Positions 4,559 through 19,524 of a DNA stretch of 46,999 nt are shown here, piece by piece. How positions within the stretch are numbered: position 1 is the stretch's first letter; each line of letters begins with the position of its first letter. Source of the DNA: a virus; UHGV virus genome UHGV-1362027, one strand, 5' to 3'. The notes beneath the pieces were generated by a model that saw only the letters and a program-made list of their open reading frames with translations, made no database searches and was not told where the DNA came from. The translations under genes were made by a program, and so were the position numbers.

Positions 4559-4635
4559 TGGTGGGCACGGACGGATTTGAACCTTCAATCAGCCGATTAT
4601 GAGTCGGTTGCTTTAACCAATTAAGCTACGCGTCC
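4559..4635 (-). tRNA. tRNA-Met (anticodon CAT; possibly Ile2/lysidine type)
   Basis: Minus strand: GGACGCG-TA-GCTT-AATTGGTTA-AAGC-A-ACCGA-CTCATAA-TCGGC-TGATT-GAAGG-TTCAAAT-CCGTC-CGTGCCC-A-CCA. Cloverleaf has U33, anticodon CAT, A37, a GG D-loop, a TTCAAAT T-loop and an encoded CCA. It also has 3 mismatched stem pairs (A3-C70, A27-C43, one in the T-stem). Confidence 0.55.
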
Positions 4636-14147: not shown

Positions 14148-16097
14148 ATGGCTACCACACCAACTAATAAACCAATCCCGTCAGAAGACCCGCGCGACCT
14201 GAAATTTAATGCCGGGAAGATTGACGAGGTTGTAACTGGTAACAACCACTACTATACCGATCGCTTTGGCGTGCGCCGCTGGACAATTGCTGGTTTCCAA
14301 TACACCGCAGAAGAAGCCATTCGCAAGTATGGCTACATTACGATGGACAGCTTCGAGGATGGTGCGACACTGACGCTTCCCAATCAGACACTGCGTTATG
14401 AAGCAAATGGAGAATATTATCGCTGGGATGGGGAGTTTCCAAAAATAGTTCCGGCTGGTTCAACTCCAGATAGCACAGGTGAGGTTAAATTAGGGGCATG
14501 GGTTAGTGTTGGTGATGCTTCGCTAAGAGCAAATCTTATTGATGTTAATGATCATCTAGGTGATGCACTGATAGCTATCAAACAACCGTACAACGGTTCT
14601 TTGGCGAGAACACAGCACTCTAAGAACTTGGATACTATTAGCGTTAAGGACTTTGGTGCTGCTGGTGACGGCACAACTGACGACACCGCTGCCATTCAAT
14701 ACGCGTTTGATGCCGCTCACTCTGCTGGGCGGAAATTATATTTTCCAACCGGGGTGTACCAAGTAAGTTCCACGCTTACTGCAAAATTAGGAACCCACTA
14801 TGCAGAGTATGGTTTGAGCATAGAGGGTGAAGGGCGTGGTGCATCGGTTATTCAATTTACATTCACTGATACGAATTCCCCAGTTGCGGGGATCAACCTA
14901 GTACCAGAGTCCGGCTCTACTGGTTATAACTTTGATATTAAAGGTATGACATTGAAGGGAACAACTGCTGCTGCGGTGAGTTCTCTTATCTACTGCACAA
15001 CAGATACATCAGGAATTATTCTAAATAACTTATACTTGCGAGATGCAATAACTGCATTTCACACGCCACACGATTGCTGGATTAGCGAATTTCATAACAT
15101 AAATATGTCATGTCGTGATTACGGGATTCGTATGGATGCTTCTGGTACAACAAACCGTTATGACGGTTGTTTTGTATTCGGCGCAGCGGTTAGTGCCTAT
15201 AAGCTGCGTGGTGATTACAGTACCATTGGCGCTCTTGCAGCCGATAATTGTACAGGCACTATCTACGATTTACGATTCTTCGCGGGTTCCGCTCAAAGCC
15301 TGGGGTCAGAGCAACCCAATACCGGAGTAGTCCCTGATTACATCGTTAACTGCGATGGTGGTATAGTTAATATAGACTACTTGTTAGGATTTAGATCAGC
15401 ACCAGTAGACGGCACTACTTGGTATGCGGTTAACGTTGGGGCGGGAACTGTTGATGTTAAAAACTTGATTGTAAGTTCAAATACTGGGTCAGACACTTCC
15501 GTGGCAGTTACTGGTGGTTTAATCCGTGGGTTGACAGGCCCAGTGACAGTTCAGAATATTGTGGCGGTACACAACCTCGCGTCAACAGCACCTGTTCCTC
15601 TTACATTTTCTACCCCACTTATCAGAAACTCTCCGTGGAAGATTAAATCAAAAACATCCACAGAAATTGCCGTATTTCAGGAAAGTAAGCCATATATTGG
15701 ATTTGGAGTTGCGGCGGCTGAACGGCCTAGAGACTTGGATGGCGTGCTAAGTAAGCGCAATCTTCAAGCAATATACATGGACTCTTCAGGAGCACCAAGA
15801 AACTCAGGTGTTGGGGTAAACCTGCAAACAGACCGAGATAAATATAAAGCAGCCCCCGCGCAAGGTTCATGGTTCATGGAAAATGACCCTTTATCTACAG
15901 GAAGGTCTGGTTATACTTGCTCAGCAGTCGGAATAGATATCAGTAGCAGCAGTTTTTTAGGTATTCCTGTTATAACTACTACTAAGCCAACATCTAATTT
16001 AATAGTAGGTCAGAGTTTCTTTAGCGTCGGGCATAACAAGCCGTTGTGGTGGAACGGGTCAAATTGGGTTGATGCTACCGGGGCAACCGTTGCCTAA
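14148..16097 (+). CDS. tailspike / receptor-binding depolymerase with right-handed beta-helix (pectate-lyase-like)
   Basis: 649 aa. SVKDFGAAGDGTTDDTAAIQYAF is the classic beta-helix glycosidase (Pectate_lyase_3) motif. Conserved N-terminal anchor region. Terminator follows. Confidence 0.7.
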   Translation: MATTPTNKPIPSEDPRDLKFNAGKIDEVVTGNNHYYTDRFGVRRWTIAGFQYTAEEAIRKYGYITMDSFEDGATLTLPNQTLRYEANGEYYRWDGEFPKIVPAGSTPDSTGEVKLGAWVSVGDASLRANLIDVNDHLGDALIAIKQPYNGSLARTQHSKNLDTISVKDFGAAGDGTTDDTAAIQYAFDAAHSAGRKLYFPTGVYQVSSTLTAKLGTHYAEYGLSIEGEGRGASVIQFTFTDTNSPVAGINLVPESGSTGYNFDIKGMTLKGTTAAAVSSLIYCTTDTSGIILNNLYLRDAITAFHTPHDCWISEFHNINMSCRDYGIRMDASGTTNRYDGCFVFGAAVSAYKLRGDYSTIGALAADNCTGTIYDLRFFAGSAQSLGSEQPNTGVVPDYIVNCDGGIVNIDYLLGFRSAPVDGTTWYAVNVGAGTVDVKNLIVSSNTGSDTSVAVTGGLIRGLTGPVTVQNIVAVHNLASTAPVPLTFSTPLIRNSPWKIKSKTSTEIAVFQESKPYIGFGVAAAERPRDLDGVLSKRNLQAIYMDSSGAPRNSGVGVNLQTDRDKYKAAPAQGSWFMENDPLSTGRSGYTCSAVGIDISSSSFLGIPVITTTKPTSNLIVGQSFFSVGHNKPLWWNGSNWVDATGATVA

Positions 16098-16101
16098 AAC
16101 A

Positions 16102-16124
16102 AAGCCCCGAAAGGGGCTTTTCAT
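16102..16124. terminator. bidirectional rho-independent terminator, identical hairpin to 5886-5910
   Basis: aaagccccgaaaggggctttt. Serves the plus tailspike gene and sits directly downstream of the minus-strand SSB-tail coding segment. Confidence 0.7.
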
Positions 16125-16131
16125 TTATTAA

Positions 16132-16251
16132 TTAAAACGGAATGTCGTCATCGAAGTCCATCGGAGGCTCATTGCCTCCTTGTGGGCTTTGTCGTTTTGG
16201 TGGTTGCTGTTGTTGTCGTTGCGGTTGCTATCCTGATTGCTGGCGTTGTTG
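16132..16251 (-). other. in-frame, stop-interrupted extension of the VRR-NUC ORF encoding a Q/P-rich linker and an E. coli SSB-type C-terminal tip (..NEPPMDFDDDIPF*)
   Basis: Same frame as 16252..16719: ...DGF-TAG-QQRQQSG-TAG-QPQRQQQQPPKRQSPQGGNEPPMDFDDDIPF-TAA. No start codon or RBS of its own. Both TAGs are followed by CAA. Confidence 0.5.
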
Positions 16252-16719
16252 CTAAAAACCATCAAATATCAATGGCTCTGATGGTTTTTTATAGTTTGGG
16301 TAATTTATTGCTCTCCAGTCGTTAAATGCCATCATTGCAGCTTCCCAACCAAGGCATGCACACGCGAAGGAACCTAATTCTTTTGCCGCCTTTAGGTATG
16401 CCATTTGACCGGGCTGCCATTTTGATAAAGTATGATCCATTCTTTTCATCTCCATAACGAATGATTGCTTTCCTGTGATGATGATGTCTGACGCCCCGAA
16501 GTTTAGCGCGCCTTTTTTCTTCAGGTTTTCAACTTCATACCCTTTACGCTTTCCTTCATTTGGTACGTGAATCATAACTCTTGCAAAGTCAGGATATAGC
16601 TTCCTTATCTGATTAACAAAAGTCTCCAGCTCAGCATCTTCTGACGGGCACTTTTTGTTTCTGTAATCTAAATTTCCATATACCTTAACGCCTTCTGGAA
16701 AAATCATAATATCCCCCAA
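16252..16719 (-). CDS. VRR-NUC domain nuclease (PD-(D/E)XK)
   Basis: Region IHVPNEGKRKG...GASDIIITGKQSFVMEMKRMDHTLSKWQPGQMAYL matches the VRR-NUC signature (D..E.K, Q..W). Confidence 0.65.
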   Translation of the reverse strand: MGDIMIFPEGVKVYGNLDYRNKKCPSEDAELETFVNQIRKLYPDFARVMIHVPNEGKRKGYEVENLKKKGALNFGASDIIITGKQSFVMEMKRMDHTLSKWQPGQMAYLKAAKELGSFACACLGWEAAMMAFNDWRAINYPNYKKPSEPLIFDGF

Positions 16720-18569
16720 TACATGCCTTTAACGTTGAAATATTTACTACCCTTATCTCTTCTGAACATAATCACTGATGGCGCGACAGCCTCATCTCTT
16801 TTAGATATTGCATCATCAATTGACATGTTATGTTCACCAAAGCACTTCTCACAAAATTCTTCCCACTCCTTCTTCATCCATTCCTTCTCAGAGTTTGGAT
16901 TGTAGAACTTGCTAACAAAAAATGGTTTCTGTTCAATAGCAAATTTTACGTGCACCAAATCTTCACCGCTTGAAACGTAATGCTTCATGATGTTCATCAT
17001 GGTTACACTTGATTGCTTGGTTGCATAAGGAGAAGAATCAAGCCTGTCAGCTTCTTCCTTTAGCTTTTGGTTGGGGTCAATAATTTCAGCGCCGCATGAT
17101 GTGCAGTTTCTTGCCGCTATATCATTTTCAAATCCACAATCAGGACACTCTTTCACCGACCACTTATAAGTACACCTGTGCATTTCCCTTAATGGCCCGT
17201 GCATAACGTAGTTTTTACACCTCCTCCCAAAATGAGCAGGCATAGGCTTGCTTCCAATTTTTTCACCTGACTTATCAAAAATATCAATCATTACTCTGTC
17301 ACCCGCCAAATCCATCCAGTAACCTTCCTTGTCAACTTCAAGATTTTCAGGATTTGGGCGCACACCAAATTCATTAATAAAGCCACAAAGAGGGCATTTG
17401 ACATCCATTGGCACGGATGGTTTTTTCCTTGTTGCTTTTATTTCTGGAGTGAACAAGTCCCCAGTCTCAGAAAAGTGGCGCTGAATGTTGCCTGCGTAAT
17501 CGCTGACAAGAAAGTCTTCCTTGCCTTCATAAAGACGCGTCCCCCTGCCAATTATTTGCTGGTAGAGTCTTGGTGATTCTGTGGCTCTCATTACTGCTAT
17601 GTGATCACAATGAGGAACATCCACCCCTACAGTAAGGATATTCTGGTTAACGATGTATTTTACTTTTTGTTCCTTGAAGTATGATATTGCCTTGTTGCGA
17701 TCTGCTGTTGGCATATCACCAAAAACATAACTATAAGAACCGGGAGGAAGTGACTCCATTATCTCCATAGCGTGTTTCTTGGTGCTGGCAAAAATCATCG
17801 TTCCGCGCCGATTAACAGAGCGACGGATAATATCTTCAACAATACGTGATGTTTTTCTTCCTTTGCCAACCATAGCCTTTTCAACTGAAGCTGTTGTGTA
17901 CCGACCCAACTTATCCTTTTCAAGACAAGACGTATCATACTCATCAACAACAGGCTCTGTTACTGGAGGAGTAAGGTATCCATTTTCAATTAGGAATTTA
18001 GCCTCAAGCTCATAAACAACCTTATCATAATATGGGTCAATGGCGGTTTCTTCATCTGTTGGCCCATCAATGTAGTGCTCTTTGTAGATGTATCCAGTTC
18101 CAAGGCGATAAGGCGTAGCAGTCATTCCAATAACACGCAGTTTTGGATTGCGACGCTTCATTTCATTAATAATAAATTTAATGGTTGGTGTTATTCCATC
18201 GCACTCATCAATAATGACAGCACCATACTTATCACCAAACATCTCTATTGAGTTCTTGATTGTAACTGGTGAACCAAACACCACCGGATGACGCAGGTTT
18301 TTGGGGCCAGCCTTTGCACTGAACATGCTGGCTGGTTCTCCTGTAAGAAGATATTTAGCGCGATTTTGTGTGACGAGTTCCGCTGTGGGAGCAATGCACA
18401 AAACTCGCTTTTTGCTCATACCATAAATACGAGATGCAAGTTCTGCTACAACCATAGATTTTCCTGCACCTGTCGGGAGGATGATAACGCATGATGAGAT
18501 GGTGCTGCGAATGTGTGCCATAGCTGAATCCACAGCTTCCTGTTGGTATGGCCTTAATGTGTATTTCAT
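16704..18569 (-). CDS. SF2 DNA helicase (DEAD/DEAH-like) with C-terminal zinc-ribbon region
   Basis: Walker A ILPTGAGKSMV, motif II VIIDECD, helicase C-terminal motifs, and several CxxC pairs in the C-terminal third. Confidence 0.75.
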   Translation of the reverse strand: MKYTLRPYQQEAVDSAMAHIRSTISSCVIILPTGAGKSMVVAELASRIYGMSKKRVLCIAPTAELVTQNRAKYLLTGEPASMFSAKAGPKNLRHPVVFGSPVTIKNSIEMFGDKYGAVIIDECDGITPTIKFIINEMKRRNPKLRVIGMTATPYRLGTGYIYKEHYIDGPTDEETAIDPYYDKVVYELEAKFLIENGYLTPPVTEPVVDEYDTSCLEKDKLGRYTTASVEKAMVGKGRKTSRIVEDIIRRSVNRRGTMIFASTKKHAMEIMESLPPGSYSYVFGDMPTADRNKAISYFKEQKVKYIVNQNILTVGVDVPHCDHIAVMRATESPRLYQQIIGRGTRLYEGKEDFLVSDYAGNIQRHFSETGDLFTPEIKATRKKPSVPMDVKCPLCGFINEFGVRPNPENLEVDKEGYWMDLAGDRVMIDIFDKSGEKIGSKPMPAHFGRRCKNYVMHGPLREMHRCTYKWSVKECPDCGFENDIAARNCTSCGAEIIDPNQKLKEEADRLDSSPYATKQSSVTMMNIMKHYVSSGEDLVHVKFAIEQKPFFVSKFYNPNSEKEWMKKEWEEFCEKCFGEHNMSIDDAISKRDEAVAPSVIMFRRDKGSKYFNVKGMYWGIL

Positions 18570-18943
18570 CAGTCAAACTCCTTGCACCACTCGACAACAT
18601 GCTCGCACTGCTTAACATCAAACATTCCTATGTGACACTTCTCTTTTCTTATTCCCATCGAACTAGCTAATGCAGAATAAGCAGCGCCTCGCGACATTTT
18701 TCCTGATTTCCATAAGGGATCAAATGCAGCATGGGCTTTGCTTTTTGCCTTCCTTAATTCTTCATTTGCTACCCTTCCAAGAGGTCTTTTACCATCACCA
18801 TTTTTGTGGCAACCAACATAAGCACCACAAGAATCACATAGATAAAAATTAAGAGACGAAAGGTCTGGTCTGTGTGGGTAAATTTCACTCCCTTTAGCTA
18901 GTCTTGTCGCAATATTGCAGTAATCACAGATAACTTCGTACAT
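18569..18943 (-). CDS. zinc-ribbon protein, hypothetical
   Basis: CDYCN...CDSCGAYVGCH Cys cluster. GGGGG RBS before ATG 18943 (ORF listed from TTG 18955). Confidence 0.4.
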   Translation of the reverse strand: MYEVICDYCNIATRLAKGSEIYPHRPDLSSLNFYLCDSCGAYVGCHKNGDGKRPLGRVANEELRKAKSKAHAAFDPLWKSGKMSRGAAYSALASSMGIRKEKCHIGMFDVKQCEHVVEWCKEFD

Positions 18944-18958
18944 ACAAACCCCCAATTA

Positions 18959-19000: not shown

Positions 19001-19524
19001 TTAAAACGGCACGTCAGAGTCAAAGTCCATCGGCGGCTCGTTAGACTGTGCAGATTGCTTAGGAGCAGATGCTGCTTTTGTCTGTTGACGACTGAAAACA
19101 CCAGCCACATAGTTACCAGTTTTTTGCTTATCCTCAGACTCCCAAACTCGCAGAAGAAGAATCATTGGGCGATTTGCAAGCGCACTGGCAATGGCAAAAT
19201 CAGTCGGCTCTTTCCCTGATGCCATCAGCTTACCACCAGCGTTTGCGTCAATTGCTGCAAGCATAGTGATAGCATTGTCGCGCTGCTTTTCTTTTGAGCT
19301 AAATACTTTCAACTTCTGGAAGATGATGCGATTTTTATACTCACCCTCAAGAATTCGCCACTTAAGATTGAAGAATCGCTCACCTTCCCACTGGTCGTCT
19401 TTACATTCTTCAACGGCAGCAAGAACACGGCTACCATCAGGAATTACTTCGAAACCACCACCAAGTTCAAATTCAGATTTAGATTCAACAGCTTTACCGT
19501 CAGAAAGATTCCAGAAACCCATTT
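19001..19524 (-). CDS. putative ssDNA-binding/recombination-associated protein with SSB-type C-terminal acidic tip (non-canonical, no obvious OB-fold SSB N-terminus)
   Basis: Ends ...SNEPPMDFDSDVPF*, the SSB C-terminal interaction motif. GAGAGG RBS before MGFWNL. Located in a Sak4/Gp157 module where an SSB is usual. Confidence 0.5.

Follow-up and report, generated by a model that had tools for sequence, protein, structure and literature searches.

A probable ssb relic, and no recoding device, between a nuclease stop codon and the tail-fibre cassette of a Buchananvirus-like phage

Introduction

Why does the reading frame of a phage nuclease gene run on, beyond its stop codon, into the end of a single-stranded DNA-binding protein (SSB)? 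This question is raised by the virus genome UHGV-1362027, analysed here as one stretch of 46,999 nucleotides (nt), which we call the window. On its minus strand, the open reading frame (ORF) of a VRR-NUC-like nuclease of the PD-(D/E)xK type ends in ...PSEPLIFDGF and a TAG codon (16254-16252). The same frame then reads QQRQQSG, a second TAG (16230-16228) and QPQRQQQQPPKRQSPQGGNEPPMDFDDDIPF, and closes with a TAA (16134-16132). We refer to the 120 nt behind the nuclease stop as the tail. The first-pass annotation of the window offered two explanations, namely a programmed read-through of the amber codons, which would equip a fraction of the nuclease with a tail for binding SSB partners, and a fossil of an ancestral ssb gene, whose OB-fold part had been replaced by the nuclease gene while the remainder was kept open and in frame. 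Based on a comparison with intact ssb genes and with related phage loci, we conclude that the tail is very probably an untranslated relic of an ssb 3' end left at a mosaic junction, and no recoding device.

Results

Homology of the tail to ssb genes

Minus-strand translation confirmed the continuation of the frame past the nuclease TAG up to a TAA that abuts a terminator, whose hairpin we place at 16101-16120. As the first-pass annotation had stated, the final 13 residues of the tail, NEPPMDFDDDIPF, are exactly those of the E. coli SSB tip (PDB 1eqq/4mz9), and no in-frame ATG, GTG or TTG occurs in the tail upstream of the Met of PMDF. The Q/P-rich stretch in front of the tip, which had been taken for the linker of an SSB, is indeed one: in a megablast comparison the tail showed 89-90% nucleotide identity to the 3' ends of annotated, Pfam-verified ssb genes in 70+ Salmonella phages. 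Because of this identity at the DNA level we regard the resemblance as true homology and not as a product of chance. The tail combines, as a canonical SSB does, a disordered linker with an acidic tip ending in D-D-D-I-P-F; no OB-fold coding sequence lies upstream of it, and the nuclease ORF is found there instead.

The stretch that matches ssb covers about 16253-16124 of the window and starts at query position 498, which is window position 16253. Compared with the intact ssb of Skatevirus BS5 (PF00436 at 3.3e-38), the remnant starts at codon ~122, and at the junction GGT-AAG-CAA-CAA-CGC in BS5 faces TTT-TAG-CAA-CAA-CGC in the window. In a codon alignment of the tail with 21 distinct intact ssb alleles, the changes private to the window were CAG>TAG and CAA>CGA. 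Whether the two TAG codons are conserved stops or sense codons in relatives had been left for an alignment to decide, and the outcome differs between them: the first stop is conserved in position with a varying codon, but the second is private to the window, all other examined relatives with a remnant having a sense codon (CAA, CAG or AAA) there.

Two side observations concern the remnant. A perfect Shine-Dalgarno-like motif, AAGGAGG, lies on the minus strand (16151-16179), 13 nt before the ATG of the 9-mer MDFDDDIPF; it consists of Q-G-G codons, occurs also in intact BS5-type ssb genes, is absent from Klebsiella-type ssb and from the clade 2 remnants described below, and is probably a by-product of coding. 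In phage Sf11, a gene for a 'hypothetical protein', gp12 (ATE85659.1, L003:3487-3669; L numbers are our labels for the compared sequences) is annotated over the ssb remnant in another frame, where it overlaps the nuclease end and runs into the terminator. Its equivalent in the window would lie at 16128-16265 on the minus strand, and gp12 is almost certainly a spurious gene call.

Two replication modules at one border

The window phage is Buchananvirus-like, with 95.7% identity to Escherichia phage Sa179lw in a comparison with GenBank phages, and not T1-like as first assumed. Nuclease gene and tail together are 92-96% identical (megablast, GenBank phages) to those of Sa179lw (Buchananvirus), Sf11 (Cedarrivervirus), Klebsiella phage YX3973 and ECO111 5-P. 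The window and its close relatives share the gene order helicase, nuclease, ssb end, terminator and opposed tailspike gene. The early module of this lineage, here called type B, contains a RecA-like NTPase (annotated from relatives and probably Sak4-like), Gp157, a DUF669 SSB, a DUF3268 protein, the helicase and, as the last gene, the VRR-NUC nuclease. Sister siphoviruses carry an early module of type A, made up of helicase, VRR-NUC, exonuclease VIII, Erf/RecT and SSB, in which ssb is the last early gene and abuts a terminator common to ssb and the convergent tail-fibre gene. In BS5, the order is helicase, a 141-aa VRR-NUC, a hypothetical gene, exonuclease VIII, recombinase, SSB, terminator and opposed tail fibre; BS5, Vi II-E1, ZCKP8 and VLCpiS13d have in common helicase, VRR-NUC, (a hypothetical gene), exonuclease, annealase, SSB, terminator and opposed tail fibre.

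The idea of an ssb fossil is thus borne out in its first part, the DNA homology to the intact ssb of sister phages. Its second part, a replacement of the OB-fold portion by the nuclease within one lineage, is not: instead, two replication modules are joined at the nuclease stop to a cassette of ssb end, terminator and tail fibre. A derivation of type B from type A by deletion of the exonuclease, the annealase and the OB-fold part of ssb was also considered and rejected, since the two types differ in the other genes of the module and their nucleases share only ~33% identity.

Mapped on a tree of the nucleases, the junctions fall into four tail states. Clade 1, which includes the window, has a Q-rich tail of ~39 codons in frame with the nuclease. 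In clade 2, a Klebsiella/Salmonella group with a nuclease ~65% identical, a TGA is followed at once by ATG-AAA-CCA-TCA... and an in-frame tail of 21-23 codons, with the peptide MKPSNTxKPPANEPPMD(FD)DDIPF. Klebsiella phages with the type A order (ZCKP8, BUCT610 and VLCpiS13d) have an intact ssb whose end shows 97% identity to this tail. A third state is found in Klebsiella phage VLCpiS13b (L025, ON602744; from 3001), whose tail stands in the +1 frame relative to the nuclease (TGA-C-CAA-CAA-CCA-TCC-AAC-TCT-CCG-CCG-ATG-GAA-GAT-GAT-ATT-CCG-TTT-TGA). Its remnant reads QQPSNSPPMEDDIPF before the stop, and an extra small annotated gene lies between remnant and tail gene. The fourth state is tail-less: in gmqsjt-1, ECO95 1-6-1 and L112/L113 the terminator follows 4-21 nt past the nuclease stop. 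In L112/L113 (Logan contigs, 68%-identical nuclease; positions 1957-1997) the 21 nt from stop to terminator contain CCACCAAAAC, a very short stretch that is possibly the last trace of a clade 1 tail after a deletion between AAAAC repeats.

We rejected the idea that clades 1 and 2 inherited one ancestral junction: close to the join their sequences are unrelated, and up to its very edge each of them agrees with a different type of ssb. Nor is the tail generally kept open and in frame, as the first-pass annotation had it, considering the TAG of the window itself, the +1 frame of VLCpiS13b and two or three tail-less lineages. The locus shows DNA homology to a syntenic intact gene, a break of identity at its edges, variable presence and different junctions, which together mark a mosaic junction.

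The nuclease ends at its native stop

Does the nuclease end where its first TAG says it does? Its homologues all end in ...x-F-stop at one aligned position, whatever comes after. Clade 1 uses TAG or TAA as this stop, clade 2 uses TGA or TAA, and tail-less or shifted-tail lineages use TAA, TAG or TGA. With these three codons, the stop recurs across independent sequences produced by different laboratories, more than 25 genomes and metagenome contigs altogether. We further searched a database of 5.8 billion proteins with a stop-less 'read-through' query. The 50 nuclease homologues returned were all 119-152 aa long and covered at most 79% of the query, every match to the tail was a PF00436 SSB, and no fusion of nuclease and SSB tail was present among the 50. 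In all likelihood, judged from this comparison, the nuclease ends at ...FDGF and both TAG codons are real stops.

One relative departs from this pattern upstream of the usual end. The nuclease of ECO95 1-6-1 (L006, OR845258) has a TAG 13 codons earlier (...NYPKQN-stop-PSSPITISHF-stop); either the protein is a shortened variant that still functions, or the unverified record contains a sequencing error.

The tail changes with the tail-fibre cassette

Beyond ~16124, the homology of the window to every GenBank phage ends, and no near match to the 3' end of its tailspike gene was found among GenBank phages. The syntenic genes of relatives are annotated as tail spike or tail fibre and are wholly different between phages that are otherwise 92-98% identical. 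For other remnants a matching cassette was found: type B phages bearing a remnant and type A phages bearing an intact ssb share 96-100% identity over the 400 nt downstream, which take in the terminator and the 3' end of the tail-fibre gene (L010 with L056, L004/L011 with L099, L015/L016/L021 with L107, L017 with L065, L020 with L057-59, and phage 6991 (L027) with ZCKP8). The tips of the tails co-vary with the cassette, as L020 has ATC-CCA-TTC like L057/L063, and L017 has GAC and ACA like L065.

The tail of YX3973 (L011) is chimeric. Its proximal part is of the clade 1 type (95% to ECO111 5-P), and over its distal 39 nt it matches, without a single difference, the Klebsiella ssb allele that adjoins the same cassette; a crossover must therefore have taken place inside the stretch coding for the SSB tip. 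Variants seen in remnants are also found in intact ssb alleles, among them DDSIPF, a 6-nt deletion of FD (PMD-DDIPF), QQSQQGG, LPK and an extra CAA codon.

Within clade 1, the nuclease genes are 92-98.5% identical, the tails 75-95%, and the downstream sequences are unrelated; between the window and L009 the nuclease genes agree at 98.5% and the two halves of the tail at 80% and 78%. The tail evolves or is exchanged 5-10 times faster than the nuclease gene. In clade 2, one identical nuclease protein adjoins at least two tail alleles, at least three downstream terminators and different tail fibres. These patterns place the relic on the exchangeable side of the junction, with alleles that come from the functional ssb pool and change in step with the cassette downstream. 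Since the alleles co-vary with the cassette and are common to intact ssb genes, we interpret the tail as a recombination scar. Moreover, the import of alleles that had been shaped inside functional ssb genes explains why the variation of the tip is seemingly synonymous only and at first sight mimics purifying selection.

Possible decay of the remnant and transfers to other phages

For the same reason, recombination with intact ssb genes and import of pre-selected alleles, we did not rely on dN/dS. Counting only private changes, all clade 1 remnants together have 10 nonsynonymous or nonsense changes to 3 synonymous ones, near the neutral expectation; the linkers of intact ssb genes have 27:17.

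If the tail travels with the cassette, is it also found where it could not extend a nuclease? In the T7-like Kayfunavirus IMEP24 (MZ648215, L023:2501-2645) we found the last 33 nt of a clade 1 nuclease gene, the TAG and a tail with a 33-nt in-frame deletion. This fragment is unannotated, lies immediately 3' of the tail-fibre gene and is antisense to all genes of the phage; in this position beside the tail-fibre gene it cannot serve as a nuclease tail. The arrangement implies transfer of a tail-fibre cassette from a siphovirus to a podovirus, for which no near match to the donor was found among GenBank phages. The reciprocal kind of scar is present in Salmonella phage Vi II-E1 (AM491472, L022:4195-4480), where the intact ssb is separated from the tail gene by fragments of type B origin, from the 3' end of the nuclease gene (...GWEEAMMAFNDWRSKNYPKQNEP and stop) and from a DUF3268 zinc-finger gene (cf. 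18569-18955 in the window). The border of replication and tail-fibre modules is evidently a recombination hot spot strewn with gene fragments.

Matches of 89-95% over 39-52 nt of the ssb-tail query were also obtained in Escherichia phage ukendt (150.9 kb) and Salmonella phage GE_vB_MG / GEC_vB_MG. They fall in unannotated or 'hypothetical' regions of these unrelated large phages and may be more orphan remnants of ssb ends.

Features of the locus and the SSB of the phage

The coordinates of the locus are collected in Table 1. The arms of the terminator hairpin, AAAGCCCC-TTTC-GGGGCTTT, are flanked by T-runs on both strands.

Table 1. Features at and near the nuclease/tail-fibre border of the window
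Feature	Position	Strand	Remarks
VRR-NUC-like (PD-(D/E)xK) nuclease gene	16252..16707	-	Likely start; 151 codons and native TAG; last gene of the replication module
Native stop of the nuclease gene, TAG	16252..16254	-	Left edge of the mosaic junction; ssb homology begins here
Probable untranslated remnant, last ~39 codons of a canonical (PF00436) ssb	16132..16251	-	Q/P-rich linker, SSB C-terminal (SSB-Ct) tip and stop
Private nonsense codon TAG in the remnant	16228..16230	-	CAA, CAG or AAA in relatives and in all intact ssb alleles
Bidirectional intrinsic-terminator hairpin	16101..16120	.	8-pair stem, 4-nt loop; serves the early operon and the convergent tailspike gene
Convergent tailspike / tail-fibre gene	14148..16097	+	ORF; distal part is the exchangeable cassette carrying the ssb remnant
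DUF669-family SSB, ending PMDFDSDVPF	19001..19522	-	PF05037, E=7.8e-6, 26.5 bits (cut-off 21)

The nuclease gene had been taken to start with the TTG at 16719; the ATG at 16707 is the likely start, because the coding sequence of the relatives measures 456 nt. The label VRR-NUC is reasonable for its product on sequence grounds, with the support being indirect, because the window protein itself gave no Pfam match, even at E<=10. The protein belongs to phrog_824 (E=1.7e-37), a profile of the 22-sequence nuclease family matches PDB 4qbl ('VRR-NUC', E=1.1e-5), and the 141-aa homologue of BS5, 34% identical, reaches PF08774 with 24.1 bits, barely above the cut-off of 23.8. The catalytic D...E-x-K motif is present, with D74, E86 and K88 invariant in the family alignment (GASDIII...VMEMK). 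An exact-protein look-up of the window nuclease returned no record.

The first-pass annotation had pointed to a second protein of the window with an SSB-Ct tip and had concluded that the phage displays such tips on non-SSB proteins. This protein, whose tail reads ...NEPPMDFDSDVPF, is itself a phage SSB by family: besides the DUF669 match it falls in phrog_9002, 'single strand DNA binding protein' (E=3.2e-70), and its neighbours are annotated in Sa179lw and Sf11 as recA-like NTPase and Gp157. DUF669 proteins have been reported as divergent OB-fold SSBs of phages, typically with acidic C-terminal tails, encoded beside Sak4, and the member from phage HK620 was identified as an SSB by experiment, its tail being needed for the stimulation of Sak4 (PMC4889955, PMC5928155). 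By this assignment the SSB function of the window phage is supplied by the DUF669 protein. With a genuine SSB of its own in the phage, the SSB-Ct tip on this protein is to be expected.

The only tRNA gene of the window is a tRNA-Met (anticodon CAT; 4559-4635, minus strand). The 41 open frames of at least 150 codons end in TAA (21), TGA (17) or TAG (3). All three that end in TAG, including the nuclease gene, have C as the next base (TAGC), numbers too few to interpret.

Discussion

Is the tail nevertheless read, at least in some phages? A programmed or tolerated read-through of the stop would add linker and SSB-Ct tip to a small fraction of the nuclease and bring it to the SSB partners of the host. 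In clades 1 and 2 nuclease and tail share a frame, most relatives have a single stop between the two, the IPF end is kept in all tail copies, and a C follows the stop in clade 1 (TAG-C or TAA-C). Yet neither the stop nor its context is conserved, as clade 2 has TGA-A and TAA-A, and TAA is the stop that is least read through in E. coli. The window would need two read-through events in series. A suppressor tRNA or a reassigned code was rejected as a way to achieve them, since the phage has only the tRNA-Met(CAT) and uses the standard code with normal stop usage and long ORFs. The lack of any natural fusion in the database, the tail in the +1 frame in VLCpiS13b and its loss in gmqsjt-1, ECO95 1-6-1 and L112, its faster change or exchange relative to the nuclease gene, and the antisense copy in IMEP24 all speak against read-through as well. 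In addition, the SSB-Ct tip binds the partners of SSB and not ssDNA or SSB itself, and what a junction-resolving nuclease would gain from it is not obvious. Taken together, the two stops in the window and the varying stop codon and missing fusions in relatives make the programmed read-through of the first-pass annotation improbable.

We consider it very improbable that the remnant is expressed instead as a separate micro-peptide, an SSB-Ct decoy that would compete with host SSB for ExoI, RecQ, PriA or chi. Such a peptide might arise in clade 2 as 23 aa through termination-reinitiation at TGA-ATG, and in the window as the 9-aa MDFDDDIPF from the internal ATG behind AAGGAGG, both being very slim prospects. 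An ATG does stand directly after the stop (TGA-ATG-AAA...) in all but one (ATT) of the ~18 distinct clade 2 loci examined, but these sequences are too alike for its conservation to carry meaning, and no Shine-Dalgarno sequence precedes it. In clade 1, to which the window belongs, no start codon is found where the tail begins. The AAGGAGG of the window does lie before an ATG, but its distance of 13 nt is a poor spacing for initiation, and as a run of Q-G-G codons it is found equally in intact ssb genes and is missing from clade 2. That the stops are sequencing or assembly errors in a true nuclease-SSB tail fusion deserves next to no credence: the match of frames is all that favours it, and the nuclease-end stop recurs with three codons in the more than 25 independent genomes and contigs, with no fused protein in the database. 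A last variant would confine the function to single-stop relatives (TAG-C or TGA-ATG), in which a captured ssb end would have been co-opted through rare read-through or re-initiation, the window copy having been inactivated recently. If true, the co-opted end would yield an SSB-tipped nuclease or a free SSB-Ct decoy of ~23 aa that engages ExoI, RecQ, PriA and chi; we hold this to be distinctly improbable, and low-level read-through and micro-peptide in one-stop relatives remain unlikely even when counted together.

How, then, did the end of ssb come to lie behind the nuclease gene? We infer that a tail-fibre cassette from a type A phage was joined illegitimately within the few bases between nuclease stop and terminator, and that this join dragged the end of ssb along. 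The match of frames between tail and nuclease would be a one-in-three accident. Once in place, the highly conserved SSB-Ct stretch would offer a left homology arm for later swaps of the tail fibre, a use that would explain why the relic seems conserved with synonymous changes. We consider it probable, from the mosaic patterns, that the remnant serves as such an arm.

Several observations weigh against reading the tail as a neutral relic. Of the three independent kinds of junction, two keep the frame, and each is found 0-4 nt from the nuclease stop; chance could produce such a pattern (P about 0.26 for the frame), but it is no proof of neutrality. As to the positions, joins that leave a viable phage would hardly be possible elsewhere, because the tail-less state has only ~4 nt between stop and hairpin. 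Apart from the TAG of the window, no frameshift or stop occurs inside the tail in ~25 distinct remnants. The test of private mutations cannot separate remnants from the linkers of functional ssb genes (Fisher P=0.35); it lacks power, since even in true SSBs the linker is under little constraint. Finally, the role as homology arm is drawn from mosaic patterns.

In summary, a recoding or SSB-mimicry device at this locus would have been remarkable, but the evidence points to a clean example of phage mosaicism, in which a conserved gene end persists in non-coding form, as a scar bordering a host-range cassette. The scar is common to phages with two unrelated replication modules and to a T7-like podovirus, and crossovers occurred inside it. 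For annotation, the labels gene and fusion should be avoided both for the remnant and for the ORF corresponding to Sf11 gp12. For the engineering of phages and the prediction of host range, the segment would mark a natural crossover point for the exchange of tail fibres.

How does this scar compare with known systems? Programmed read-through in phages is exemplified by the A1 protein of Q-beta, produced by read-through of UGA. The locus in the window resembles this case in having an in-frame extension after a stop, but differs in that stop type and context are unconserved, some relatives lack the extension or carry it out of frame and a second stop is present. With canonical SSBs (PF00436; BS5, E. 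coli) the remnant shares DNA homology over the last ~39 codons and a like linker and tip; it has no OB-fold, start codon or ribosome-binding site, contains an internal TAG and is, in contrast to them, not a gene. The DUF669 protein is unrelated to the remnant and a member of the DUF669 SSBs (HK620, N4-type); it has an acidic SSB-Ct-like tip as in HK620 (NDYPPF), although its PMDFDSDVPF is much nearer to the E. coli motif.

The closest likeness is to the remnants of mosaic junctions. In the modular evolution of tailed phages, as described for lambdoid phages, gene remnants and boundary or 'linker' sequences are found at module borders. As in these cases, the tail is what remains of a gene that relatives carry in full, lies exactly where identity breaks between modules, varies in presence among close relatives and flanks a horizontally exchanged host-range cassette. 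Unlike the usual remnants, it is by chance in frame with the upstream gene, its scar is found also in a T7-like podovirus, and it represents the most conserved stretch, the SSB-Ct tip, of a near-universal gene, so that it offers homology to many unrelated phages.

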